A stretch of 64,000 nucleotides of DNA, taken from positions 39,491-103,490 of the IMG/VR virus record IMGVR_UViG_3300045988_182851. One strand, written 5' to 3'. The notes beneath the pieces were generated by a model, which saw nothing but the letters and a program-made list of their open reading frames with translations, did not search any database and had not been told where the DNA came from. A program made the translations under genes and the position numbers. Shown one piece after another: positions 2,630-39,749 of the stretch. Origin of the DNA: a virus. Within the stretch, counting starts at the first letter, position 1; each line of letters starts with the position of its first letter.

Positions 2630-3016
2630 TCATTTTGTTGTATTTAAAATTATTTCTGAAAAATATTTTCTCTGTTCTTCTAAAGAGCCATACTGTTCCC
2701 AATCAAAATAATTCGCATTTTTATCTGTTAAAATTTCTTGATTTGCAACTACTCTTAATCTGTGTTCTATTTCTTTAATAGTCGGAAATGATTCTGTATC
2801 ATTATTGGTATAAAACAAATACATGTAACCTCTTGATTTTTTTATACCGCTTGTATTACCAATAATAATTGCTCTAAATCCAGCATCATTTTCAACTGTA
2901 ATTTCTGACTCTCCAAGGTCATTATTCCATATGACATTGAAAAGTTTATATACTTCATTTTGCTTTAATTCCTTATATGCATTCTTTATCTTTCTTGCTA
3001 ATTCTAAATAGGTCAT
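2630..3016 (-). CDS. hypothetical protein (128 aa)
   Basis: minus-strand ORF with GGAGGAAAG RBS; shares a duplicated 5'UTR with the 2401..2571 ORF. Confidence 0.5.
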   Translation of the reverse strand: MTYLELARKIKNAYKELKQNEVYKLFNVIWNNDLGESEITVENDAGFRAIIIGNTSGIKKSRGYMYLFYTNNDTESFPTIKEIEHRLRVVANQEILTDKNANYFDWEQYGSLEEQRKYFSEIILNTTK

Positions 3017-3082
3017 ATCTTTCCTCCAATCTTCTAAAGAAACTCTTGTCTACTCATGCATACCAGTAAATCGCCAATTCAT

Positions 3083-3280
3083 TTACTTTAATTCAATTAA
3101 CTCTGCTTCTTCGACATATTTCTTTGCCGCATTATATCCATTTTTATTAAGTTCACCTTCAATGCTAAACCAAAGTGAATCTAAAAAATTGGGAATAGAT
3201 GCAAAATCTTTATTTGGATATTTTTCTCTATATCGCTTATATGCAATTTTATACAATTCATCTACTAAATCACGCTTCAT
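3083..3280 (-). CDS. hypothetical protein (65 aa)
   Basis: minus-strand ORF. Confidence 0.4.
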   Translation of the reverse strand: MKRDLVDELYKIAYKRYREKYPNKDFASIPNFLDSLWFSIEGELNKNGYNAAKKYVEEAELIELK

Positions 3281-3313
3281 TATATTTTCTCCTTTTACAT
3301 TAAGAAATTCGTT

Positions 3314-3643
3314 TCATTCAGTTTCGATTTCCAAAATCTGTCCAATAAGTTCCTCTAAGTTTTCACTATTCAGATATGGACGCTGTGGATTTCCATTCTT
3401 ATCATATAATGTCGCAGAATATCTATCATTTTCATATTTGTATATGACATCAAATGACACGTTATCTGTTTCAACGAATGCATGTGGTTCACCATATGTA
3501 TTTTTATTACCTTGTAAAAATTGCAACTCAATTTCTAAACAATGTTCTTCCACCTCGTTTTCATACAAGTCATTTTCAAGAATAGCTTCTATTTCTGTTA
3601 TTCGCAGCTCTTTCTCCTGATTTTCATTATATTCTAGTCGCAT
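3314..3643 (-). CDS. hypothetical acidic protein (109 aa)
   Basis: minus-strand ORF, highly acidic composition. Confidence 0.45.
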   Translation of the reverse strand: MRLEYNENQEKELRITEIEAILENDLYENEVEEHCLEIELQFLQGNKNTYGEPHAFVETDNVSFDVIYKYENDRYSATLYDKNGNPQRPYLNSENLEELIGQILEIETE

Positions 3644-3694
3644 ATAATCATCTCCATTCTTCTATAAATCATCGTTTCATGTTATTTTTTTTCT

Positions 3695-3895
3695 TTACTC
3701 AATTGTGATATATATTCCGTCTCTTTTATCCCATGCAAAAATTTGAATATTTAATAACTCTTCCGGTAATTCAGATATATTACCTTTAAATAAGTCTTTA
3801 TTTTTATTGGTAGAAACAATAATTAAATTTGCATGATTTTCTTTTCGATTATTTAATAATTCTTTTAGTGTGGGAGCTTTTTCCATAAATATCAA
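3695..3895 (-). CDS. hypothetical protein (66 aa)
   Basis: minus-strand ORF. Confidence 0.4.
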   Translation of the reverse strand: MIFMEKAPTLKELLNNRKENHANLIIVSTNKNKDLFKGNISELPEELLNIQIFAWDKRDGIYITIE

Positions 3896-4061
3896 TCCTC
3901 CATATTTTTATTATTATCCCGTTAAAACTCTTGATTACTTACCGTAATTTTCCATTCCTTGCATATTCTAAAGCTGCCTCTTTTCCATTATGTTTGATTA
4001 CTTCCTTATCTCCATCTGTGTTCCATTTAATATTTATTGCTTTTAATATATAAATCACTCC

Positions 4062-4535
4062 TTACGCAATCTTCGTTATTTCCATATAACAGCCATCCAT
4101 ACACTTATCATACTGTCTGATATCATATAGCCATTTGAAAGGTATTTTTACAGTTCTTTCATCCTTTAATTTTCCCATTATTTCGTCAATATCGAAATAA
4201 CCTTGCATAAATCCATAACCTGATAAATAATGTTGTCTGTCCAAATTACATAATCTGTCATGATATTTTATGGTATTTTTCTTTAGAAACTTAATATATC
4301 TGTCAGATAAGCCAAAATTTTCTTTTGGGTTGTCTTCACTCCATTCTGATGATAAAAATGAACAACCTTGGAACAATTTAAGTTGCCACATAACTTCACG
4401 CATATTATAAAGAGTCTTTGTGATTCCATTTATTGCGATCATATAATCATTCAATGTTCCTGGCTCCCAATTCTTTTTGCTGCATCTTTTACATTTATAT
4501 GTATCTGTATTAATTATCATTTTATATCGTGCCAT
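4062..4535 (-). CDS. hypothetical protein (157 aa) with N-terminal CxxC
   Basis: minus-strand ORF; CKRCSKK motif. Confidence 0.45.
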   Translation of the reverse strand: MARYKMIINTDTYKCKRCSKKNWEPGTLNDYMIAINGITKTLYNMREVMWQLKLFQGCSFLSSEWSEDNPKENFGLSDRYIKFLKKNTIKYHDRLCNLDRQHYLSGYGFMQGYFDIDEIMGKLKDERTVKIPFKWLYDIRQYDKCMDGCYMEITKIA

Positions 4536-4635
4536 ATTTTATTTCTCCTTTATATTATTTATTATGAAAAATATGACAGAAAATAAAAATATCTCACCCA
4601 ATTAATTTTGGATGAGATATTGTTGCTGCAATCTT

Positions 4636-5913: not shown

Positions 5914-6297
5914 CTATTTTTGATTAATATTTAAGTAATAAGTTTTTCCTTTAATCTTGATATATCTTCCTTTTTTATTAAAATAGCAAATCTTATTACA
6001 AGTCAGGTCATGATAATAATTGTCCTTATATTTGATTTCAATGGTTAAACCATTATCAAAAACTATCTCTTTATCGTCTGCCAAATTATATGGTACTTGT
6101 CGTATATACGGTTTAACACAAGCATTGCAGTATATAAGCGTTCTCAAATCGGTGCATATAATATCTTGTACACCCATACTTTTACCGCATTTTTCACAAA
6201 ATAGTTCAGCACATCTATATGACATGTATTCACTTTCTTTCCATTTTCGACCACTTTTATTTAACTTATTTTCTACTTTTTCCCATAATTGTCCCAA
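5914..6297 (-). CDS. Cys-rich putative zinc-binding protein (127 aa)
   Basis: several CxxC pairs (CEKCGK, CNAC). Confidence 0.45.
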   Translation of the reverse strand: MGQLWEKVENKLNKSGRKWKESEYMSYRCAELFCEKCGKSMGVQDIICTDLRTLIYCNACVKPYIRQVPYNLADDKEIVFDNGLTIEIKYKDNYYHDLTCNKICYFNKKGRYIKIKGKTYYLNINQK

Positions 6298-20294: not shown

Positions 20295-21980
20295 TTAGCA
20301 TTTGCGTACTATTGAAGGGGCTGACATATCAGGGTTAATGAATTTCTTACATAAATGTTCAATTCCAGTTGTTGAATCAAGCCAATATAAATAATCTCCA
20401 TCAACGTCCACCAGATATTCATTAATAGAATCAAGAACATCGTTTACTTCAGAAACAGTACATATAAATCTGTATGAAGACTTATTTTTCTTTAAAGGTT
20501 TAACAGACTTAACAATAATCTGATATACAGTTTCGTCATCTGAAGATCTAAAATCATCTACTTGAATTTTTCCTGATAAACATAATTTAGCATCATTAAC
20601 AAGTAAGTCTCTAATATTCGCATAATCCTTAGAAAAACATACACCATTAATAGAACCTGTTTTATCTTCTACCTCAAAAGTTACCCATTCATATCCATTT
20701 CTATCCTTTCTTACAACAAGATTTTTAATTATACCAGATACATCGTTAACTTCTGTTGAAATATCAGAAATGGGATCTGTATAAATATTATACTCATCAA
20801 TTGGATGCCCTGTAATATAAACGCCTAACACTTCTTTTTCATCATTTAGAATCTGACCTAAATCATCTTCTACATAATCAATATCTATATTTTCAAGATC
20901 ATCTTCTAAGCTTTCTATAACTGTCTTAGCTGAATTGATACGTTTAATTATGGAATCTTTAGTTGGTATCTTTTTTGAAGTAACTTGAAAGGAAATATTT
21001 TCTTCTGAAATTCTTTCCTTAAACTCATCAAGATCAATATAATCTTCCACAAATTCAATAACTTTACTTGCGTTTTCAATAAACTTACTCTTCTCTCTGA
21101 TTTTCTTAATTGTATCCTGAATTTCTTTCATACAAATCATATCTAATGATATCATTGTTCTTGTATAACCAAGGCAATCGAAAGCACCTGCTTTAATTAA
21201 GGAACTTAATGCTTCTGCATTAATATTTGTTCGTTTGATAAAATCCTTAATATCAGAATATTCTCCATTAACATTTCTATCTTCAATAATTTTAGCTGCT
21301 TCTGCTCCAACATTCTTAATATTACTCAGACCATACAAAATGTTCCCATCTACAACATCACAATGTAAATTTGAAGCATTAATGTCCGGAGGCAATACCT
21401 TTACTCCAAAATCAAGGGCATCACTAATATCATCAGCGACTTCATCAATCTTATCAGTATAATTTATTACATTTGTAAGATAATAAGCCGGATAATAATA
21501 CTTAAGAAAAGCTGTCCAATATGATGTAACAGCATAAGCAGTAGCATGTGACTTATTAAACGCATACTTAGCAAAGTCAACCATCGCATCCCAGATTTTA
21601 TGAGCAATTTCTTCTGGTATTCCATTTGCAATACATCCTGGTACTAATGCTTCATTTTCTTTTTTAGTATCAGCATTGCCATATACAAAAGTGTGTCTTT
21701 CAGCATCAATTTCATCCTGATGTTTTTTTGACATAGCTCTACGGACTAAATCAGAACGCCCCCATGTATATCCTGCTAAATCACGAACAATCTGCATTAC
21801 CTGTTCCTGATAAACTATCTGTCCATAAGTAGTTGACAAAATTGGCTCTAATTGAGGACATAAATATTTAATCTTAGATGCATCCTTTTTACCTTCTATG
21901 AAATCAGGTATAAACTTTTCAGGACCAGGACGATATAAAGCATTCATTGCTATTAAATCTTCAATACCTGTTTTATTCAT
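20295..21980 (-). CDS. dnaE: DNA polymerase III alpha subunit, C-terminal part (fingers C-terminal half, HhH, OB fold), separately translated
   Basis: DLIAMNALYRPGP, YGQIVYQEQVMQI, FAKYAFNKSHATAYA, VLPPDINAS, HhH NIKNVGAEAAKII, OB GVYITGHP; own RBS AAAGGAGAAATTTAAAATG and own promoter motif at 22017. Confidence 0.85.
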   Translation of the reverse strand: MNKTGIEDLIAMNALYRPGPEKFIPDFIEGKKDASKIKYLCPQLEPILSTTYGQIVYQEQVMQIVRDLAGYTWGRSDLVRRAMSKKHQDEIDAERHTFVYGNADTKKENEALVPGCIANGIPEEIAHKIWDAMVDFAKYAFNKSHATAYAVTSYWTAFLKYYYPAYYLTNVINYTDKIDEVADDISDALDFGVKVLPPDINASNLHCDVVDGNILYGLSNIKNVGAEAAKIIEDRNVNGEYSDIKDFIKRTNINAEALSSLIKAGAFDCLGYTRTMISLDMICMKEIQDTIKKIREKSKFIENASKVIEFVEDYIDLDEFKERISEENISFQVTSKKIPTKDSIIKRINSAKTVIESLEDDLENIDIDYVEDDLGQILNDEKEVLGVYITGHPIDEYNIYTDPISDISTEVNDVSGIIKNLVVRKDRNGYEWVTFEVEDKTGSINGVCFSKDYANIRDLLVNDAKLCLSGKIQVDDFRSSDDETVYQIIVKSVKPLKKNKSSYRFICTVSEVNDVLDSINEYLVDVDGDYLYWLDSTTGIEHLCKKFINPDMSAPSIVRKC

Positions 21981-22066
21981 TTTAAATTTCTCCTTTCAAT
22001 TCATAACTATATAATTTATGACAGAAAATTAAAAAAAGCGTCCAATTTTGGACGCTTGCATGAATA

Positions 22067-22372
22067 TTAAAAAGAATACTTGTTACATATATTTTCTTTT
22101 ATATAAGTGATCAAATTTTTAGCATAATCTATTCTGTCTTTTAATTTATCAATATCATTAATATCATATGAAACATTACCAGTAATACTAATATAAAAAT
22201 CATCTTTTATGGTTTTAATTTCAATATCATAATATGGAATCTTTGGAGTAAAAAAGAATCTTATGACTTTACCTGTTCTTAAATCTCTTCTTAATAGAAT
22301 TCTATATGTTTTATTATCGTATTCATCTATTATCCATGGACCGGATTCATATGTTCTAATAAAAGTTACCAT
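22067..22372 (-). CDS. hypothetical protein (101 aa)
   Basis: minus-strand ORF. Confidence 0.45.
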   Translation of the reverse strand: MVTFIRTYESGPWIIDEYDNKTYRILLRRDLRTGKVIRFFFTPKIPYYDIEIKTIKDDFYISITGNVSYDINDIDKLKDRIDYAKNLITYIKENICNKYSF

Positions 22373-22953
22373 TATCTTACTTCTTCCTCTCTGTTATCTT
22401 TATTAATTTCAGTATGAATTACATCTGGCATAATTTTATCTTCATCATCTTCTCCGCCTAAATCTAAATCAATATCTGATAGTTCATTTGTGTCAATATT
22501 GTTTGTTATATTACTAATATTAACACTTTTACAATTTTGAGTCATTGCCTTTATAACATCATCTATAGTTTTAGCATCTCTACCGATTCCGTCAAGATAA
22601 AAAGCAGCCGTTACCTGGGCGCAAAAATCTGCGATTATATGTCTATCAGTTGTTTCAGGGCAAAACTTAGGAACATTATAATATTCACAATCTCTATTGA
22701 TTTGGGAACACGCAGCTATTGCAGCTTCATGTTTAATTCTCCGATTTTTATCCATAGACTGAATAGCTTCTCGTAATTCTTCTCCCTCAAGTGTAGCATA
22801 TTTAATTGGAGTTGAATAGTTTTGATGATAAACAATCTGTACATATTCTCCAAATGCGGCCATATTGTAATTTAACATATCTAAATCATTCTCTCTATAT
22901 TCATTATCTGGCGAATTTATTGCATTTACTAATTCCTTAAATTCTTTAATCAT
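22372..22953 (-). CDS. hypothetical protein (193 aa), acidic C-terminus
   Basis: minus-strand ORF; stop overlaps the next start. Confidence 0.45.
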   Translation of the reverse strand: MIKEFKELVNAINSPDNEYRENDLDMLNYNMAAFGEYVQIVYHQNYSTPIKYATLEGEELREAIQSMDKNRRIKHEAAIAACSQINRDCEYYNVPKFCPETTDRHIIADFCAQVTAAFYLDGIGRDAKTIDDVIKAMTQNCKSVNISNITNNIDTNELSDIDLDLGGEDDEDKIMPDVIHTEINKDNREEEVR

Positions 22954-23052
22954 ATTTTTTACTCTCCTTCCATTTATTGTTATAATAAATAAATGACAGA
23001 AAAATAAAATAACAAGTACCCATTAATAGGTACTTGTTATTAAGCATTTGTT

Positions 23053-23499
23053 TTAATTTGAATTACTCTTATCATGTACAAAATATAATTTTTGTATTAA
23101 TTCAGATTTTCTTTTTTCATACTGAAATAAATCATTACATTCACATGATAAAAAACTTGCAGCAGAATCAATCTGTTTTACAATTTCCTTTACTATACAA
23201 TCGATGATTTCCTTTGGTGATTCCAATAGTTTAATTAAGCCTAAATGCTCCCCTTCATGAATTATGAAAGCTGTATCTGGTGTCAAAACTAGCGTTGCTG
23301 TAGAGCCTTCAGAATCAAAATAACAGGATGCCGTATTATTGTTATAATAATTAATGCACATATCTAATAAGTCATTTGAGACATCGGTTAAATATGAAGC
23401 GTTTACTCTACAATTTGTCTTTTCGAATTTAATATTACACCAACCATTTGTTAAAATTTCAATTATCATGATTTTCTCCTTAAATATAATTATAGGCAA
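23053..23499 (-). CDS. hypothetical protein (148 aa)
   Basis: minus-strand ORF. Confidence 0.45.
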   Translation of the reverse strand: MPIIIFKEKIMIIEILTNGWCNIKFEKTNCRVNASYLTDVSNDLLDMCINYYNNNTASCYFDSEGSTATLVLTPDTAFIIHEGEHLGLIKLLESPKEIIDCIVKEIVKQIDSAASFLSCECNDLFQYEKRKSELIQKLYFVHDKSNSN

Positions 23500-24371
23500 A
23501 CAATGTTGCCATTTTTAAGTATACTTATAATACTGTTAAGTTCATACAAACCTAATATCTGCTCACTAATTTCATTTAACATATTATCTGATACATTAGC
23601 GTTATAAGCACCAAGTTCTACATCTGTTTTTATTGTTACTAAAATTTTGGACAACAAAATATTGTCTTCACTATTTATTAAACAATTTGAAATACTTTTC
23701 CCTTTAGACATATTAGATTCAATATCTGAAATATTCATATATATGTTAAACAAATTTCCATACTTATGTATTAGTTTACTTGCAGTTTTAGGACCAATAC
23801 CTGCAGCTCCAGGAATATTATCCGATTTATCTCCCATTAATGCTTTTACATCAATAAACTGTTTAGGAGTAACGAAATACTCATTCATAATTTCTACCGG
23901 AGTCCAAATATCTTCCGGGTTGTTTGGAACAACTAATGATACTAAACCATTACATAATTGTAACAAATCATGATCTGCAGATATAATATTAACCTTATTT
24001 CCTGCTTCACTTTCAATAGTTGAAATTGTCCCTATAATATCATCTGCCTCATATCCTTCTTTTTCAATAACACATATATTCATTGTTTTAAGAATAGGAA
24101 CAATAGCCTGTCTCTGAATCTTAAATTCTTCCGGTGCAGGTTCTCTGATTGCCTTATATTCATTGTACATTAAATGCCTGAAAGTTGGCTTTGCAGTATC
24201 AAACGCAACAATTAATTCATCAGGACTATACTTTTCTTTCATATATAGAATTGTATTTAAAGCTCCTTTAATTGCATTAGTCGGAAATCCCTTTGAGGTT
24301 TTTAATTCTGGAACACCGTAAAAAGATCTTCTGAGAATATAATTCCCATCAAAAATCATAATATTTTTCAT
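23490..24371 (-). CDS. 5'-3' exonuclease / flap endonuclease (Pol I N-terminal-like); start moved to MKNIMIF
   Basis: IMIFDGNYILRRSFYG, FPTNAIKGALNTIL, EADDIIGT, ISADHDLLQL, HhH LMGDKSDNIPGAAGIGPKTASKLIHKYG; RBS AAAGGAGAAAAATTA before the ATG at 24371. Confidence 0.85.
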   Translation of the reverse strand: MKNIMIFDGNYILRRSFYGVPELKTSKGFPTNAIKGALNTILYMKEKYSPDELIVAFDTAKPTFRHLMYNEYKAIREPAPEEFKIQRQAIVPILKTMNICVIEKEGYEADDIIGTISTIESEAGNKVNIISADHDLLQLCNGLVSLVVPNNPEDIWTPVEIMNEYFVTPKQFIDVKALMGDKSDNIPGAAGIGPKTASKLIHKYGNLFNIYMNISDIESNMSKGKSISNCLINSEDNILLSKILVTIKTDVELGAYNANVSDNMLNEISEQILGLYELNSIISILKNGNIVCL

Positions 24372-24403
24372 TAATTTTTCTCCTTTATAATTTTTAATAT
24401 ATT

Positions 24404-24418
24404 TATGACAGAAAAAAA
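24404..24418 (-). promoter_or_regulatory. conserved promoter-like motif (TATGACAGAAAAAAA)
   Basis: about 33 nt before the flap-endonuclease start. Confidence 0.5.
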
Positions 24419-24470
24419 GCAGGAAACATAAGTCTCCCGCTTTCAAAAAATTTTATTCAGTTATGAAAAA

Positions 24471-24737
24471 TTAAGATATTGAATTTCTTTCACTTAAGAA
24501 TTTTTCCACAGCATCTTCAACAGCTTCATATTCAGTAAGTCCATTACCTTCTGCATAAGTATCATATGCTGCTTCACCAATATCAATATAATCATTCTCA
24601 GTAATATCAGAATGATATTGAGGCTGAATAATCTCTTTAGCTGTATTAATCATCCATGTTGAAACAAATTCCTTATGAACAGCATAAATTTCGTCATATG
24701 TTAATTTTATTTCCTTACCATTTCTTATTATTGTCAT
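24471..24737 (-). CDS. hypothetical protein (88 aa)
   Basis: minus-strand ORF. Confidence 0.4.
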   Translation of the reverse strand: MTIIRNGKEIKLTYDEIYAVHKEFVSTWMINTAKEIIQPQYHSDITENDYIDIGEAAYDTYAEGNGLTEYEAVEDAVEKFLSERNSIS

Positions 24738-24750
24738 GTCTTATTCTCCT

Positions 24751-25020
24751 TTAGTTGTTATTATTTTCGTCAGAATTATCATATATGACGCTTTCAATTA
24801 TATTAATTGCTGTATTTGCATGAATAACTTCCTCGCCATCATCGTTAGAATATCCATCGTCATCATATGTACTTTCAGTCAGCCAACTTGCCTCAGAAAC
24901 TTCTTTAGAAGCTTCTGAAATCTCGCTTATTAAAGTATTTTTAATGATATTCAACATATTCTTTTCTGTTTCTGATTCTGAAGTTTTAATAAAGTCATTT
25001 ATAATATTTAAAGTTTTCAT
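24751..25020 (-). CDS. hypothetical protein (89 aa), paralog of the 4636..4968 ORF
   Basis: see the 4636..4968 entry. Confidence 0.5.
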   Translation of the reverse strand: MKTLNIINDFIKTSESETEKNMLNIIKNTLISEISEASKEVSEASWLTESTYDDDGYSNDDGEEVIHANTAINIIESVIYDNSDENNNN

Positions 25021-25035
25021 AAAATTCCTTTCTTT

Positions 25036-25494
25036 TTACAATGTACTTTTTATAACCTTAACAGGTTCTAATCTGCCGTTTATAAATGAAGCAGTTCCTA
25101 ATGTTTTATCAGTATTTTTAGAAGATTCAAAGAAATCATTTGCCATATCCTCATTTGAAAAATATGAATATTCTCCTGAATTGTCTCCGCAATCTGACTC
25201 ATATCCTATCCAAACATAATAAAATGAAAATCTTTCAAGGCTATCACTGTCGTCAGGGATTTCTCCGTTCCAATCATCATTTTCTTTTATATCTTCTTCT
25301 AATTCATATTTAAACTCGCTCATCATATTAGGATCGTCTAAATATACACATTTATGGTAATTATCAACTGCAATTGCGCATTTCTGTCCTAATGGATGCA
25401 GTAAATAATTCTTAGGCACTTCCAATAATGCTCCTATCATATCATTTACTGTTTCTAAGTTATTTTCCTTAATTTCAAATGCATTAGTTTTCAT
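25036..25494 (-). CDS. hypothetical protein (152 aa)
   Basis: minus-strand ORF. Confidence 0.45.
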   Translation of the reverse strand: MKTNAFEIKENNLETVNDMIGALLEVPKNYLLHPLGQKCAIAVDNYHKCVYLDDPNMMSEFKYELEEDIKENDDWNGEIPDDSDSLERFSFYYVWIGYESDCGDNSGEYSYFSNEDMANDFFESSKNTDKTLGTASFINGRLEPVKVIKSTL

Positions 25495-25578
25495 AATTTT
25501 ATTCTCCTTTTTAAATTTTATAATAATACAATGACAGAAAAATAAAAAAACTGGCTACTAATAGTAACCAGTTTAATT

Positions 25579-26568
25579 TTATAACTTTACAATTTTCTCA
25601 TTAACTTCCATTCTAAATGTATTGATTTTGTCTATATCCGGCTCATCTGGCAATACAGAGTTTTTACATGCATTTTCAAACTTATTCTTGTATTCATCTA
25701 CTATTTCAAAGAAATGTTTATTAGGGATTCCATTTTCATCAAGATATACACCATTTCTAATATCCATCAACAAATCATGTTCTTTAATTCTTTTCGTTTG
25801 AATTTTCCCTTCAGAAACTAAATCAATTCCCATCATATACAATCTAAGTAAATGCATACTATGTTTTGCTATTTTACCATGATTTAATGCATGTTCATTC
25901 CTTTTACTTGTTTTCCGGTAATCTCTTAAAGTGTTATTAAATTCTGAAAGCATTCCTGACAAATCTTCCATTGAACACTGTGTTGCAATAATATTGCATT
26001 TGATTTTGCCGTCAACCAAATAAAAAGACACATTATTTTCATCTAAATTGTACTTATCGTTCATTTTCTTGGACATATTATTAAGCACTCCAGAAATGTG
26101 TCTATTTAATTCTTCTTCCGTTAAAGCAGCGTTGGTCTTCTGCTGCATACGGTATAACTGTTGTAATGCATATTCACTAAATGTATTAATACATCTATTC
26201 GATAAAAAAATATCTTTATTTTTTAATAAAAGCTCCCCAATTTCATTTTTATAAATATAATCATCTGTATCTAATCCTAAAAGTTCAATAGTGTTTGGAT
26301 TGCATTTAGCTAATAAGTCAATAATTTTGTCAAAACTATAAATAGTTGTATCTGTATTAACGTCTACAAAATTTTCAAAATCATTACCTAACAAGATATC
26401 TTCTTTTTTCCTAACAGCAACTCCTCTTATATCAATATCGCTTTCTGGAAGATTTGTCCCATATGCTCTGCTACCACCTAATCCAAGTATACAAATATTC
26501 TTATCTAAATTTTGATTTTCCTTTAAAAATGAATACTCAGGCATATTTAATATATTTTTATTTATCAT
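25579..26568 (-). CDS. Pol-beta superfamily nucleotidyltransferase (329 aa) with an alpha-helical C-terminal domain
   Basis: ILGLGGSRAYGTNLPESDIDIRGV matches the GS-x(9-13)-DhDh signature; further acidic residues VDVNTD about 30 aa downstream. Confidence 0.55.
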   Translation of the reverse strand: MINKNILNMPEYSFLKENQNLDKNICILGLGGSRAYGTNLPESDIDIRGVAVRKKEDILLGNDFENFVDVNTDTTIYSFDKIIDLLAKCNPNTIELLGLDTDDYIYKNEIGELLLKNKDIFLSNRCINTFSEYALQQLYRMQQKTNAALTEEELNRHISGVLNNMSKKMNDKYNLDENNVSFYLVDGKIKCNIIATQCSMEDLSGMLSEFNNTLRDYRKTSKRNEHALNHGKIAKHSMHLLRLYMMGIDLVSEGKIQTKRIKEHDLLMDIRNGVYLDENGIPNKHFFEIVDEYKNKFENACKNSVLPDEPDIDKINTFRMEVNEKIVKL

Positions 26569-26592
26569 ATTCTCTTTCCTATCCTTGTAATT

Positions 26593-26648
26593 GAACTACC
26601 CACAACCGGCTATTGTCGGTTGTGGTTTTTTTGCTTAATTGCGATAAT
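26593..26648 (-). repeat. R1 structured repeat, copy 2 (divergent, 9 bp stem ccacaaccg/cggttgtgg)
   Basis: between the 26658 stop and the 26568 start. Confidence 0.55.
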
Positions 26649-26657
26649 ATCATTCTT

Positions 26658-27290
26658 TTATTTTCTAACAATAGCAGAAAAATCTACTGACTGTAAAATC
26701 TTAATGATATCTTCTACTTCAGGACTTCTCCATGCAGTCATAGCATAGGTATGAGCGTACTCATCGTAATGATAATGATTTGCCTTTAGATGTTCAGCGG
26801 CTGCCTTTTCTGTTAAAAACATTGTGTTTTCATAAATTTTATCTCTATATGCATAACAGGTGAAAGTATATCTGCCATAATTATGCTCATTCAACCAAGT
26901 CTTTAAATCATCAAGATCAGCTAAACATTCCTCATAATCATTATCTTCTTTTGATGTAACATAATATCCATCATATTCTTTTGAAATAACCCAAGAGTCA
27001 CCGTTTTCTTCAAATTCCTTATTAAAAAATACAATTGCATCATCAATATTATCAGCAACTTCTTCGACTGCCTCATTATCTATTAATGTTACACCGTCTT
27101 CATATCCTTCTGGAACAATACACTTTTCTTTCCCCATAATAACCCAAAATCGAGGATCAGCTTGTCCTACATGGTCCTGTGTATTTAATTCATGCTGCAA
27201 ATCAGACAAAAATTTGATTTCTTTATCTGTAATTTTATGTTTCTCTACTGTGTCTGGATGGTATTGTAAATGTTCATGAAATATTGCCAT
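26658..27290 (-). CDS. hypothetical protein (210 aa)
   Basis: minus-strand ORF. Confidence 0.45.
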   Translation of the reverse strand: MAIFHEHLQYHPDTVEKHKITDKEIKFLSDLQHELNTQDHVGQADPRFWVIMGKEKCIVPEGYEDGVTLIDNEAVEEVADNIDDAIVFFNKEFEENGDSWVISKEYDGYYVTSKEDNDYEECLADLDDLKTWLNEHNYGRYTFTCYAYRDKIYENTMFLTEKAAAEHLKANHYHYDEYAHTYAMTAWRSPEVEDIIKILQSVDFSAIVRK

Positions 27291-27317
27291 ATTTTTCTCC
27301 TTAAACTTTATTTATTT

Positions 27318-27554
27318 TTATTCAGTATAGTATTGGAATGCACAATCATACATTTGTTTCCCAGTTATCTGATCTGTGAATATAGGGCAATGCCAATCCT
27401 TATTAAATCCTGTTTCCTTACACCATTCATTAATAACTCTAGTAGTAATTGGTGTGACAAATACATATAAATCTGATTCATGGTGAAACATATCTTTTTC
27501 AGAATATCCAACCTCAATGAATCGTTGCATAAGAGTTTTATTATTTTTCTCCAT
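27318..27554 (-). CDS. hypothetical protein (78 aa)
   Basis: minus-strand ORF with AAAGGAGAACAATATTATG start context. Confidence 0.45.
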   Translation of the reverse strand: MEKNNKTLMQRFIEVGYSEKDMFHHESDLYVFVTPITTRVINEWCKETGFNKDWHCPIFTDQITGKQMYDCAFQYYTE

Positions 27555-27589
27555 AATATTGTTCTCCTTTATTTATTATAATTTAAAAG

Positions 27590-27606
27590 AAATATGACAG
27601 AAAAAA
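27590..27606 (-). promoter_or_regulatory. conserved promoter-like motif (AAATATGACAGAAAAAA)
   Basis: immediately after the terminator of the dnaE N-terminal gene. Confidence 0.5.
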
Positions 27607-27630
27607 CGCACATCATAATGACATGCGTTT
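27599..27630 (-). terminator. terminator hairpin (aacgca..tgcgtt) plus T6 after dnaE exon 2
   Basis: minus strand reads AAAACGCATGTCATTATGATGTGCGTTTTTTCTGTCATAT; follows tandem TAG TGA stops. Confidence 0.45.
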
Positions 27631-27658
27631 TAATACAAAATATTCAATTAACTATTCA

Positions 27659-28414
27659 CTATGAGCATAACTTCTTAAGGTTATTCCTCATACCGGCTGA
27701 CTCAAACTGGAAAACATTCTTAGTTCTTCCTTTTGCATATACTTCTTTGTATACCTTATCAGCTTTAGGACCCTCTAATGGAATATTCATTACATCAATT
27801 ACTTCTCCTGTATCTCTCTGAATCATTCTGAGTGTGTCAGTAATAATTGTAAGAGTTTTTAATCCAAGAAAATCCATTTTTAATAATCCATTAGCTTCGC
27901 ACTGAATCATATCCATTTCTGTAGTTTTAATTCCCTTTTTTCCATCTCTAATAGGAATATAATCAGTAACATCATTACTATCATAAATAATAACACCTGC
28001 GGCATGTTGTGCGTATGTCGTAAGCATACCTTCACAATGAGCTGCAATATTAAGAATAGAAATAGCATCTGGATTACTATTATATTCATCCTTTAAGAAA
28101 TCTAACAAAGAAATGCTGTCCTGAATATTAATGCCTAATTCATCAACCTTATTAGTATCTTTCATGCCAACAATATCTTCAAAATTAGTTGCTTTAGCAG
28201 GCACTTTCTTACGAATCTGATCTCCTAAAGATAAGAATTTCTTTTCATCATCATAAGCTTTCTTTCCATAATATCTTGCAGCATCTCTGATAGCACCTTT
28301 AGCCTGCTGTCTTGATTCTGTAATAATTCCAACAACAGCTTCACTACCATATTTAGCTCTTACATACTCAATTGTCTTTTCTCTTACTCCAAGAGCAAGA
28401 TCGCTATCGATATC
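27659..28414 (-). CDS. dnaE: DNA polymerase III alpha, exon 2 of the N-terminal gene (palm C-terminal part and fingers N-terminal part)
   Basis: begins DIDSDLALGVREKTIEYVRAKYG (compare DIDIDF..R.EVI.YV..KYG), ends FQFESAGMRNNLKKL then CS and TAG TGA; the ORF-track start at 28417 is a TTG inside the intron. Confidence 0.8.
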   Translation of the reverse strand, partial: DIDSDLALGVREKTIEYVRAKYGSEAVVGIITESRQQAKGAIRDAARYYGKKAYDDEKKFLSLGDQIRKKVPAKATNFEDIVGMKDTNKVDELGINIQDSISLLDFLKDEYNSNPDAISILNIAAHCEGMLTTYAQHAAGVIIYDSNDVTDYIPIRDGKKGIKTTEMDMIQCEANGLLKMDFLGLKTLTIITDTLRMIQRDTGEVIDVMNIPLEGPKADKVYKEVYAKGRTKNVFQFESAGMRNNLKKLCS

Positions 28415-29354
28415 CAAATATACCCCTACTTTCGTAGTACTTTAACACTTGTATAAGTGGGATTAGACTATATCTCAATATAATATTGTTAATATTATAT
28501 TTCAACGCACTTCCAACTGTAACCATTCTCAGTTGTACTCCTTAAAAAGGATAGTCGTTACACTTTAAAATAAATAATATTATATACGAACAATTTTTAA
28601 GTCATTCCATTTTAAATATTTATGCATTGAGGAATAACTTGCGTTATATTTTTCTTTAGCATATCGAGCTGCTGCTAATATGCTTTCAAATCTATCAATT
28701 AATATATCTCCTTTATATAATTTACAACACTTATAATTTCTTACAGGAGACATAGTTTTATAACTATCATATAAATTGTCTTTTCTAGTACACCATTCTA
28801 AATTATTCACCTTACAATTTTGTTTATTTTTGTCTTTATGATTAACTTCTGGTAGATTATAAGGATTAGGAATAAAATTCATCGCAACTAATCGATGCAA
28901 TAAATATTTTTTATTATCTAATCTTATCATCCTGTAATTCTTTTTACTATCTAAAAAAGGTTTAAGTTGTCGAATTTTCCCTTGTTTTATACTAAAAATC
29001 TTTCCATATGAAGTTATGTAATATTCGTGGTGATTTTTAATTTCTATTATTTTTTCACCTTTTTCAAGGAATGATGTAAAATTGATATAATCTATCATAA
29101 ATATACACCTCCTTATTTATATAATATTATTTATAATCTTAGCACGGTATCGCCTGCTATCCTTCAATATCTTTTATATAAAAATATTAGGACCGTAGGT
29201 TCTCTTACGAAGCTGCTTCGTCTATGGGTTAAGCTATATATCCTGTTGTGACACTTTATATAGCAGTCTTATTCAACTTCTACCGTTAGCACTTAATAAT
29301 AAAATATTAAGCACACCTCTGAGTTAGAGTCCACGCTGAACGCCCAATATATTT
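28415..29354 (-). other. group-I-like self-splicing intron (about 940 nt) interrupting dnaE between SMP and DIDSD, carrying an HNH homing endonuclease ORF
   Basis: exon 1 ends ..ATGCCT (U before the 5' splice site); the intron ends in G before GATATCGAT; joining restores the conserved ERVSMP|DIDSD; GC-richer structured segments at 29100-29350 and 28420-28580. Confidence 0.7.
28580..29098 (-). CDS. HNH homing endonuclease (HNH_3 / AP2-type, intron-encoded)
   Basis: HRLVAMNFIPNPYNLPEVNHKDKNKQNCKVNNLEWCTRKDN and an N-terminal YITSYGKIFS-type motif; RBS AAGGAGG before the ATG. Confidence 0.8.
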   Translation of the reverse strand: MIDYINFTSFLEKGEKIIEIKNHHEYYITSYGKIFSIKQGKIRQLKPFLDSKKNYRMIRLDNKKYLLHRLVAMNFIPNPYNLPEVNHKDKNKQNCKVNNLEWCTRKDNLYDSYKTMSPVRNYKCCKLYKGDILIDRFESILAAARYAKEKYNASYSSMHKYLKWNDLKIVRI

Positions 29355-31148
29355 AGGCATACTTACTCTTTCTGGATTTAAGAATCGTTCAAAAATCAGA
29401 TTATACTTAAATGGATCAATTCCGGTAATACCAAGTAAATATGTAACCAATGAACCGGCACCTGAACCTCTTCCAATGCCTATTCCAATTCCGGTATTAT
29501 AATTGTGAGCCTTAACATACTCTTTTGCACCTTCAATTGTTAAAGGTACTTCTGATAGTTTATCCATAGGTACTAATCCACAAATTCTTCCATATTCCAG
29601 GAAGTCCTTTACAATTAAATGATAATCGGCAAAGCCCATCTGAATAATAATATTAAGTTCGTATTCCATTCGTTTCTGATGTTCTTCATCCCATCCTTTT
29701 CCGTTAGGATATCTCCAATTAATTCCCTTAATTGCTTCAGATCTTAATAATTCGTTTGAGTCCTTGTTCTTATCAAATACTGGATAATGATTAGATTTTT
29801 CTGGAATATAAGCACATCTTTTTCCAATTACATTTAAGTTATTGAGTGCTTCTGCAACCTGATCATCTGTTAATATAGCTGATAAGGCCTGAGCAAGTTC
29901 GTAAGGTGTTTTTACATATAACTCTTTATCTGATTCCGACTCACTTATCTTAATAAATCTTAAAAACTTAGCTACATTACGCATATCAATACTTCTATCA
30001 GAATTATCTGCCATATGTGCATCATTAGCAGCAACTAATGGGATATTATGCTTCCTTGCTAACTGAGCTAACACAGGATATGTTCTGCTTTCCATTTCAA
30101 GCCCATGATTCTGAACTTCAATGTAATAATTACCTGCTCCAAAAATTTCCTGATAAAAAAGCATTGTCTTTTCTGCTTCAGACATTAATTCTATTGGGCT
30201 TTTCTTTAACGATTCATAATGCTGTATCTTATTTTCATGATTAATGTATTCCTCTACCTTAAGACTTATATCCTTTAACTCGGCTTTCTTAGCATTAACT
30301 AATTTTCTGACATTAGGAATTTTATCTTTAGCTTCCAGAATTTTATTATTTATCTCTTCATATTCGTTAATCAGTTTAATAAGCTCTGGATCATCATCAT
30401 TTAAACACTTCCTTGCATCTCTTAATTTTCTTGAAATCTGTGTCCTTTCTGATTTAAGTTCCTTGGAATCACGAATATTAATCAATTCATCTAAATCTGC
30501 CGATACCCTTTCAAATTCATCTTTAGCTGAAAGATATTCTTTATCATCAGGACTTATACAATCACGTATCACTAGCTCGTCTTTTTCAGTAGTATGCTGC
30601 TGTGCTTTTCTTTCTCTGTTAATCATTTTATCCAAAACATCATCTGATAATAATTGCAGAGCTGGTGCGCCCGAAACGCAAGCTGAAGTTGCTATTATAT
30701 CACCGTTAAAGTTATATTTCTTTAAATCTGATATTGTAATAACAGGCTTTCCCATTCTTTTTTCAGAAGCCTTAGAATTTAACTTATCAATAATATGCTT
30801 GCCTCTTTCTGAAGTGGCCAACATAATCATATGGCCAATCTGCTCATTTATCTTAAATGGCGGCACTTCAATATAAGCCTCTACGCCATAAATGATATTA
30901 AATGGATGTTCTTCAGTACTTATTTTCTTAGCGTAATCAATACATGTTTGCATTGCTGAAAATGATGCATGGTCCGTAACAGCAAATTTAGTATATCCTG
31001 CATTAAATGCAGCATCTAAATAACTTTTAGGTTCATCTACGGCATCAAACAAAGAGCCTCCTGGATGGTTATGTTCACACACTGTAACTCCTGATTCAAT
31101 AACCTTTTTTGTTAATTCTCCAATTTTTACATGTTCAAACATTGACAT
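29355..31148 (-). CDS. dnaE: DNA polymerase III alpha, exon 1 (PHP domain and palm) of the N-terminal gene
   Basis: [20 protein letters not shown]; [40 protein letters not shown]; RBS AAAGGAGGAAATTTAATG; about 170 aa coiled-coil insertion inside PHP. Confidence 0.85.
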
Positions 31149-31182
31149 TAAATTTCCTCCTTTATAAATTTTATAATTAATA

Positions 31183-31196
31183 CATGACAGAAAAAA
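31183..31196 (-). promoter_or_regulatory. conserved promoter-like motif (CATGACAGAAAAAA)
   Basis: about 35 nt before the dnaE exon 1 start. Confidence 0.5.
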
Positions 31197-31259
31197 TACA
31201 CCAGTTGACTAATCTCAACTGGTGTATAAATACACATTATTTAATTGTTAATTATTTTA

Positions 31260-38882: not shown

Positions 38883-39749
38883 TTATTTTGTTTGATAAAG
38901 AAGATATGACAGAAAATTATTTACATTAGAATGTGAACTGTTATTTCTTATTACTAAAATATTTCTGATAACAATTATGAAAAATATAATACTCATTACG
39001 ATTAGACAAATATTTTGTAACATAACAGGCATAAAAGAGTACAATACACTACTTGCATTAACTCCAATATGAATTAAAATAGAGGACAATAAATTATCTG
39101 TTTTTATATATACATAGGCTAATATAATACCGAAAATAAATGCATAAGTGCTTTGAATAATATTAAAATGCACTAATCCAAAAACGAAAGCTGATATATA
39201 AATTGAGCTTACATCTGGTTTCTTAAAGAATTTGTTTTGCTTTATTATTTTTGTAATACCGTATCTAAATATTAATTCTTCAACAACTGGCGTAATAACA
39301 CCTGTTATTAAGAGTACTTGAAGCCAATTTCCGGTTACAGCAACATTCATCAAAGAATTATATGAATTAGAAACCAAATTATTAGGTAAGGAATCTATTA
39401 CCACAGAAGCTAAAAAATTCATAATAATGCCTGTTAAAATAAATGTCTTGACATCTTTTAATGATAATTTTGAAATAAATATGATTGATTTATTAACTTT
39501 ATATTCTTTAAGCATAACAAACCCAAGTATTATAATATCGGAAACAAATAATGCAGGCATAATTAATTCACTGAGCATACTAAGATAACTATATGAACGT
39601 AAATTACCTGTTTCTATACATACATATAAATTATCATACCATTGTGAGTCAGAAAACAATTTAAAAATAAATACACCCAATGTACATATAATTTGAGTAA
39701 TAAGAAAAACAAATACTATTCCAATCATCTTTGTAATTTGTTTAATCAT
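38883..39749 (-). CDS. CPBP-family (CAAX protease / Abi) intramembrane metalloprotease, second copy
   Basis: ITPVVEELIFRY and FVFGLVHFN motifs; six or more TM helices. Confidence 0.65.
   Translation of the reverse strand: MIKQITKMIGIVFVFLITQIICTLGVFIFKLFSDSQWYDNLYVCIETGNLRSYSYLSMLSELIMPALFVSDIIILGFVMLKEYKVNKSIIFISKLSLKDVKTFILTGIIMNFLASVVIDSLPNNLVSNSYNSLMNVAVTGNWLQVLLITGVITPVVEELIFRYGITKIIKQNKFFKKPDVSSIYISAFVFGLVHFNIIQSTYAFIFGIILAYVYIKTDNLLSSILIHIGVNASSVLYSFMPVMLQNICLIVMSIIFFIIVIRNILVIRNNSSHSNVNNFLSYLLYQTK

Follow-up and report, generated by a model that had tools for sequence, protein, structure and literature searches.

A probable IA-type group I intron with an HNH endonuclease gene at the catalytic aspartate codons of a phage dnaE gene

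Introduction

A stretch of viral DNA of 64,000 nucleotides (nt), positions 39,491 to 103,490 of the IMG/VR record IMGVR_UViG_3300045988_182851 and called the window throughout, carries a gene for a DnaE-type DNA polymerase (dnaE), whose coding sequence is interrupted by 940 nt directly before the codon of a catalytic aspartate. The locus raises the question of whether this insert (28415-29354) is removed from the RNA as an intron, or leaves the polymerase to be made in pieces. A sequence-only reading of the window had taken it for a group I intron with an HNH homing endonuclease gene. The present analysis suggests, with a probability of about 0.88, that the insert is a mobile group I intron of the phage IA type residing in dnaE, its self-splicing being predicted from sequence. 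All the features described below lie on the minus strand, and their coordinates are those of the window.

It is well documented that group I introns interrupt essential genes of gut phages, among them DNA polymerase genes (PMC12880540), and IA2 is reported to be the main viral group I subtype (PMC11835236). The literature, coverage of which was incomplete, yielded no account of a dnaE group I intron, so that this is absence of evidence only. The expectation of the sequence-only reading that such an intron has rarely been described thus agrees with the literature, whereas the element itself turns out to be common in sequence databases.

Results

Boundaries of the insert are evident from an allele that lacks it. 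The sibling phage L001, an IMG/VR contig of 95 kb, shares 98.3% identity with the window on either side of the insert and is devoid of exactly 28415-29354, window position 29355 abutting position 6282 of L001 and window position 28414 abutting its position 6283. The dnaE gene of L001 is a single continuous open reading frame (ORF) of 849 amino acids (aa), reading ...ERVSMPDIDSDLALG... across the site. The allele without insert proves the boundaries to be exact, after CCU at the 5' side and between the terminal G and GAU at the 3' side, as had been proposed from the sequence alone. Removal of the insert joins CCT to GAT, U is the last base of the 5' exon and G that of the insert, all as predicted.

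Exon 1 of dnaE (29355-31148) covers the PHP domain and the beginning of the palm; its extent follows from the ORF list, Pfam and the collinearity with L001 as far as 29355. Its last residues are ...ERVSMP, the last codon being CCU, and its final AUGCCU (29355-29360) constitutes the 5' strand of P1. The ORF that contains it (29307-31148) continues from DnaE sequence into 15 unrelated codons inside the insert, followed by a stop, which corrects the earlier count of 16 such codons. Exon 2 (27659-28414), supported by the ORF list, Pfam and L001, extends from GAU AUC GAU (DID) to ...NNLKKLCS and a stop codon within the fingers domain. DnaE homology picks up again at 28414, as the sequence-only reading had it, with DIDSDLALGVREKTIEYVRAKYG, which begins DIDSDLALG. 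In the Pfam profile DNA_pol3_alpha, the match to exon 1 stops at position 102 and that to exon 2 starts at position 103; since these positions adjoin, the junction is seamless.

The ungapped alignment offset to solved Pol III alpha chains places the junction between P400 and D401 of the Escherichia coli enzyme and between P462 and D463 of the Taq enzyme. According to the published structures, D401 and D463 are the first residues of the catalytic aspartate pair. The insertion therefore separates the Pro codon of the PDIDxD motif from the codon of its first catalytic Asp, in accordance with the earlier placement at the PDID motif.

Within one phage species the 940-nt insert is optional. It occurs with its ORF in the window and in L159, L168, L175 and L192, it occurs without ORF in L157 and L166, and it is missing from L001, so that three allelic states (no intron, ORF-less intron, intron with HNH gene) are found in one species. 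The ORF-less intron of L157 and L166, which belong to the same phage lineage, is 425 nt long, lies at the same site and is 100% identical to nt 1-242 plus 757-940 of the window intron. Of the endonuclease gene it retains only the last codons, as part of the P6a 3' strand. The maintenance of this ORF-less copy indicates that the structured RNA is retained independently of the endonuclease. A non-coding insert of 425 nt with stop codons ahead of the catalytic aspartates would be lethal unless removed from the RNA, and this is the strongest argument against a mere splitting of the gene by a free-standing HNH gene.

A co-conversion signature was sought in the single-nucleotide polymorphisms of the exons around the site as compared to L001, and none was found. 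The window and L001 first differ at 292 nt from the site on the upstream side and at 104 nt on the downstream side; any endonuclease target within this identical region would accordingly be intact in L001.

The catalytic core was searched for with a covariance model, designated R1. A motif scan of IMG/VR had returned many phage contigs, in several of which Rfam certifies group I introns with 56-102 bits; R1 was built from the 3' halves (J6/7 to P9) of six Rfam-certified introns scoring 72-102 bits, all from unrelated contigs and none of them situated in dnaE. When both strands of the 64-kb window are searched, R1 gives a single match, at 28444-28571 of the minus strand, with 44.3 bits and an E value of 4.1e-7 over the full model length. 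It scores 27-63 bits on the homologous dnaE introns and finds no match in the intron-less L001. The matched segment, to which a weak Rfam match also points, represents the 3' half of the catalytic core and comprises J6/7, P7, P7.1, P7.2, the 3' strand of P3, P8, J8/7 with the 3' strand of P7 (P7'), and P9.

Covariation was analysed in nine distinct lineages of the dnaE intron, from which the ORFs had been removed and to which 10 nt of exon were left on each side. RNAalifold alone recovers P1 inclusive of its exon strand, P4, three hairpins of the P5 domain, P7, P7.1, P7.2, P8 and P9.1, and 28 of its 70 pairs show compensatory changes. When P3 and P10 are added as pseudoknot brackets, 94.5% of the cells pair as compared to 32-42% in slid controls, i.e., with the pairing partners shifted by 1-3 columns. 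The number of pairs changed on both sides is 30, against 5-10 in the slid controls, and none of 500 shuffles reaches the observed values. Among the core helices, P3, the hairpins of P5 and P8 receive support from covariation. The fold of the single sequence is moderately better than that of its shuffles (z = -3.5).

The internal guide region (29340-29350), read from the RNA, pairs with both exons. P1 consists of the exon end AUGCCU and the guide GGGCGU (29340-29345, intron nt 10-15); it is paired in all nine lineages, and its U.G pair at the 5' splice site is invariant in every one of them. Just 5' of the guide, AUAUU (29346-29350) pairs with GAUAU of exon 2 as P10, a helix that is 89% paired across the lineages. 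The P9.1 hairpin with its GAAA loop and the 3' tail occupy 28415-28443, the intron ending ...UAUAUUUG before GAUAUC with G (28415) as its last base. The intron 3' end at 28415-28430, AGGGGUAUAUUUG before GAU, also holds a Shine-Dalgarno-like element and a UUG.

The P3 5' strand UCAGCGUG (29332-29339) follows P1 directly and pairs with UGCGUUGA at 28502-28509, as supported by covariation and by the RNAfold centroid structure; the helix crosses P7 as in the group I pseudoknot. Two extra hairpins lie between P3 and P4 (29289-29329), X being CUCU/AGAG and Y being GUGCUUAATA/UAUUAAGUGC. Both display compensatory changes, and Y forms a hairpin in every lineage, whatever its sequence, which differs from one lineage to the next. 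P4 (ACGGUA/UACCGU, spanning 29144-29286), backed by RNAalifold and by pair counts, encloses an enlarged P5 domain of about 130 nt, part of which is the almost unvarying block GACGAAGCNGCUUCGUAAGAGAA. The covarying hairpins of this domain are GCUAUAUA/UAUAUAGC, ACGAAG/CUUCGU and GUCC/GGAU. Helices were retained only where RNAalifold and covariation back them, and the pairings CUGCUA/UAGCAG and GACUG/CAGGC, tried by eye, were discarded as inconsistent across lineages. Pairing within the P5 domain is uncertain.

P6a is a 17-bp stem made of AUAAAUAAUAUUAUAUA (29118-29134) and UAUAUAAUAUUAUUUAU (28570-28586), which closes off the ORF; its sequence is unrelated from lineage to lineage, yet it always pairs. 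P6a and P8 consist of A-U pairs only. In the 3' half of the core, the P7 5' strand GACUAU (28551-28556) pairs with AUAGUC at 28466-28471, J8/7 together with the P7' strand reads GAUAUAGUC, and the J6/7 and J8/7 consensus sequences are both present. P7.1 (CCUU/AAGG) is compensatory in four of its four pairs and P7.2 (CAACUG/CAGUUG) in four of eight. The location of both between P7 and the 3' strand of P3 assigns the intron to subgroup IA (IA2-like). The P1 U.G pair, P10, terminal G, P3/P7 pseudoknot, J6/7, J8/7, P7.1 and P7.2, taken with the covariation in nine lineages and with the match to a model of certified introns, uphold the group I assignment proposed earlier.

The loop of P6a harbours the gene for a predicted HNH homing endonuclease of 172 aa, similar to I-HmuI (28580-29098). 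Its ribosome-binding site (RBS) AAGGAGG (29108-29114) lies just inside the loop, and its last codons and stop lie within the P6a 3' strand; the ORF and the RBS had both been recognised in the sequence-only reading. Its further description as HNH_3/AP2-type holds for HNH_3, which Pfam detects with 35.9 bits (cut-off 24.8), and fails for AP2, no AP2 domain being found in Pfam; NUMOD4, at 20.6 bits, remains below its cut-off of 23.4. The protein aligns to PDB 1U3E with an E value of 1.3e-8 (residues 20-112 on residues 6-100 of 1U3E), the entry of I-HmuI, deposited as an HNH homing endonuclease. I-HmuI is the HNH nicking endonuclease encoded by the intron of the SPO1 DNA polymerase gene. The same loop of a homologous intron in Mammaliicoccus phage phi127 has a GIY-YIG gene in place of the HNH gene. 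Such an exchange is the usual pattern of endonuclease turnover, and the HNH ORF is a separable passenger of the intron. As for the GC-richer flanks ascribed to the insert, only the 5' non-coding flank (33.2%) exceeds the ORF (23.9%) and the window (28.3%) appreciably in GC content; the 3' flank has 28.5%.

Distribution of the intron

Megablast against GenBank phages revealed no close relative, and the best tblastn identity (49%) is to uncultured human-gut phage fragments. A 20-mer from P4/J4-5 matches 6 loci in viral, 1 in genomic and 48 in metagenomic sequences, most of them of human-gut origin, and about 35 metagenome contigs carry a homologous intron directly after ...RFLNPER.SMP of dnaE, i.e., at the same site. 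The single match of the 20-mer among 185,579 reference genomes is to a Lachnospiraceae bacterium metagenome-assembled genome (CAJSZT010000006.1, 1601-1620). Along with matches in Enterocloster phages, this hints at gut Lachnospiraceae as the host of the window phage.

By blastn against GenBank phages, the same intron is found at the same site in staphylococcal phages of the SPbeta-like type, and its 3' domain is tied to regions of Streptococcus thermophilus and staphylococcal phages. In NC_029119 (Staphylococcus phage SPbeta-like, 3481-3942) the exons are annotated as dnaE_2 and dnaE_1 with an unannotated gap of 460 nt between them; the intron lies at the homologous site, after ...ELP and ending ...AAAUG before DIDID, and has no ORF, unlike that of the window. 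In phi127 (3001-3989) the homologous intron follows ...DGLP and carries the GIY-YIG gene instead of the HNH gene; its exons are annotated as 'DNA polymerase' and 'hypothetical protein', and the intron is not annotated. Both introns resemble that of the window in the P1 U.G pair at the splice site and in the terminal G, and R1 scores 54-61 bits on them. P3 of the staphylococcal copy covaries as UAAAUGUG/UGCAUUUA. The carriers differ from the window phage in being temperate phages of staphylococci, and their polymerases are only about 23% identical to that of the window.

A P4-P5 module (ACGGUAGAAGUUGAAUAAGA...) is also common to introns at other sites. It is found in dnaE after ...SFGY in cultured Enterocloster phages (CB457P1, ~3990-4610), upstream of an FNKSHA motif in L140 and its group (L140, L141, L179), and in an nrdD-like gene in L143 and its group (L143, L144, L146). 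The shared module suggests that one intron lineage has moved between replication genes.

The introns of L149, L193, L155, L161, L181, L186 and L191 end ...AAAGA or ...AAACA before GAUAUU. Exact restoration of P followed by DID makes A, and not G, the last intron base in all seven. A slide of the junction by one base yields a terminal G only in L149 and L193, the 5' exon then ending in C.

A second split of dnaE

The C-terminal piece of DnaE, with the rest of the fingers, HhH and the OB fold, is not part of the intron arrangement and is encoded at 20295-21980. The upstream piece ends ...FESAGMRNNLKKLCS with a stop at 27659, followed by a terminator-like hairpin, and the C-terminal piece, starting MNKTGIEDLIAMNALYRPGP..., is a separate ORF with its own RBS 5.7 kb downstream. 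About ten genes lie in 21981-27658, inclusive of those for an RlaP-like nucleotidyltransferase, a 5'-3' exonuclease and a DUF3232 protein. Both parts are contiguous in one frame in all the other relatives examined. An intron or trans-spliced intron at this second break (27659 to 21980) was considered and rejected, as R1 finds no group I 3' domain there; trans-splicing and an intein were likewise rejected in view of the terminator-like hairpin, the RBS downstream and the lack of room for an intein. Since dnaE is split here without an intron, the active polymerase would assemble from at least two polypeptides.

Exon 1 also shows, past the PHP match that ends at its residue 175, a long charged Lys/Glu-rich stretch (residues ~170-335, window ~30150-30650) without any Pfam match, which looks like a coiled-coil insertion.

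Discussion

Several observations weigh against a group I intron and need to be set against the evidence above. The Rfam check suggested by the sequence-only reading did not return the expected result: a scan of the whole window at gathering thresholds found no family, group II models included, RF00028 (Intron_gpI) gave nothing at E<=1 on 27600-31200, and on the 3' piece alone it reached 15.2 bits (E 0.08), the gathering score being 50; neither flank by itself gave a match at threshold. Even the ORF-less homologue L139 obtains only 14.4 bits. Two central pairs of P3 are mismatched in four to five of the nine lineages, though the outer pairs hold, and P4 and P7 never vary, which renders covariation uninformative for either. 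There is no helix between P1 and P3, and two hairpins stand in place of J3/4, at variance with the canonical P1-P2-P3 order with its short J3/4. Moreover, splicing and its catalysis, the activity of the endonuclease and the target of the latter are all inferred.

The failure of RF00028 is probably due to the two P3-P4 hairpins, in a position that canonically has three nt, to the large P5 domain and to the 515-nt ORF. In the weak Rfam alignment, GAGAUAUAGUCUAAUC and the hairpin behind it nevertheless fall on J8/7-P7'-P9, the segment in which the family consensus is conserved best. As R1, derived from certified introns, matches the same region, the Rfam result reflects a problem of sensitivity and is not evidence of absence; it is to be read as a false negative. 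P3 covaries also in relatives outside dnaE (UUCAUUG/CGGUGAA and UCUUUUG/CGGAAGA). The departure from the canonical layout is regarded as real, though not fully resolved.

A different explanation, considered very unlikely here, is that the insert is dead or never spliced and that the exons yield separate polypeptides assembling non-covalently, exon 2 being translated from the UUG at 28415-28417 behind the Shine-Dalgarno-like AGGGG. The ORF list does contain a TTG-initiated ORF (27659-28417), the AGGGG-N6-UUG of the intron 3' end is in frame with exon 2 and might permit a restart, and UUG or AUG is found there in several relatives as well. These points speak against splicing, as does the division of dnaE into two translation units further downstream, by which the phage evidently tolerates DnaE in pieces; free-standing HNH genes are moreover known to split phage genes, as in the case of Aeh1 nrdA/mobE (PMC3045599). 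Against this, the 30 compensatory pairs indicate selection on the RNA fold and not only on coding, the 425-nt form is maintained at the site without any ORF, and the core is homologous to certified ribozymes. A break at this place would also fall one residue before the catalytic Asp pair, and introns of the L149, L193 and L155 type have no start codon at their 3' end. The AGGGG and UUG may be a by-product of P9.1 and the terminal G, or a back-up translation start. A free-standing endonuclease without structured RNA is contradicted by the covarying non-coding RNA of about 420 nt that persists ORF-less at the site.

A group I intron that is not autonomous, its efficient folding or splicing depending on a protein helper (a factor of host or phage origin, or the HNH protein in the role of a maturase), appears improbable, though less so than a gene left in pieces. 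The enlarged P5 domain, the J3/4 hairpins, the unusual core with its poor Rfam score, the A-U-only P6a and P8 and a fold z of only -3.5 would fit such a dependence. However, the persistence of ORF-less copies suggests that the HNH protein is dispensable in cis, and self-splicing in vitro is known for those phage IA introns that have been studied (T4 td, Twort).

For an intein or group II intron the chance is negligible, and the sequence already refutes both. Insertion at the active-site motif of a replication gene is typical of inteins, and dnaE inteins are known (PMC2677866, PMC4760082); nonetheless, the in-frame stop 15 codons past the junction leaves no continuous frame, which is the ground on which the sequence-only reading had rightly dismissed an intein. 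A group II intron is contradicted by the absence of any Rfam family in the window and of a reverse-transcriptase domain in the HNH ORF (Pfam), and the ORF-less element, of only 425 nt, argues against both.

The mobile group I intron hence remains the preferred explanation, and the following course of events is envisaged from its structure. On the pre-mRNA, ribosomes translating exon 1 would stop 15 codons into the intron. The exon end AUGCCU would pair with the guide GGGCGU as P1, placing the U.G pair at the cleavage site, and a free guanosine would attack after the U of exon 1. The freed exon 1 would then attack after the terminal G (28415) while P10 (GAUAU/AUAUU) holds exon 2, and ligation of CCU to GAU would give the spliced junction ...AGUAUGCCU joined to GAUAUCGAU.... 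The predicted product is the N-terminal DnaE protein of 849 aa, which is the same as the L001 protein at the junction and about 99% identical to it overall. The 172-aa HNH protein would be translated from its own RBS in the P6a loop and presumably introduces a nick or a cut, close to the site, into dnaE alleles without intron that co-infecting phages carry, whereupon repair from the intron-carrying copy would spread the intron by homing.

By analogy, the intron is expected to work like the IA2 introns with HNH genes in polymerase genes (SPO1/I-HmuI, Bastille/I-BasI, Twort). The SPO1/I-HmuI system resembles it closely, being a phage group I intron at conserved active-site codons of a DNA polymerase gene, with a peripheral loop that encodes an HNH homing endonuclease of about 170 aa. 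The host gene in the window, however, encodes a C-family (DnaE-type) polymerase and that of SPO1 an A-family polymerase, and the window ORF lies in P6a, whereas the SPO1 ORF sits in P8. With the IA2 introns of T4 td, nrdB and nrdD, Twort orf142 and the S. thermophilus lysin gene the window intron has in common the J6/7-P7 sequence GUGyAACGACUAU, P7.1 and P7.2 between P7 and the P3 3' strand, the J8/7-P7' sequence GAUAUAGUCU, and P9 and P9.1 with GNRA loops. It differs from them in having no P2 between P1 and P3, two P3-P4 hairpins, a P5 domain of about 130 nt and an RF00028 score far below threshold. Aeh1 nrdA/mobE is similar in that an HNH gene stands between the halves of an essential replication-related gene. 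That locus is not known to involve a ribozyme, and its halves assemble as separate proteins; in the window, in contrast, the HNH gene is embedded in a conserved, covarying ribozyme of about 420 nt, which is also maintained in its absence.

Tentatively, and on balance doubtfully, these introns might constitute an unrecognised IA sublineage that general models miss and that is specialised on the codons of the DnaE catalytic aspartates. Its possible marks would be a P1 that abuts P3, two J3/4 hairpins and a large P5 module shared with introns of nrdD and of other dnaE sites, and its range might extend from gut Clostridia-type phages to SPbeta-like prophages of staphylococci. If so, the members without a terminal G would imply a non-canonical choice of the 3' splice site.

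Conclusions

The element is an ordinary kind of phage parasite and not a new mechanism, in a host gene, dnaE, for which no published description was found. A homing intron is expected to target those codons of an essential replication gene that are conserved most strongly, and DnaE-type phage polymerases can join the list of group I intron hosts. The finding is of modest interest, mainly for annotation and intron surveys. Annotations that divide the gene into dnaE_1 and dnaE_2, or into 'DNA polymerase' and 'hypothetical protein', affect analyses of pangenomes, phylogenies and gene counts of gut and staphylococcal phages. As the standard Rfam model misses this lineage even in its ORF-less form, intron surveys relying on Rfam undercount. 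The occurrence of three allelic states in one phage lineage offers a clean natural system for homing and for the gain and loss of endonuclease genes.

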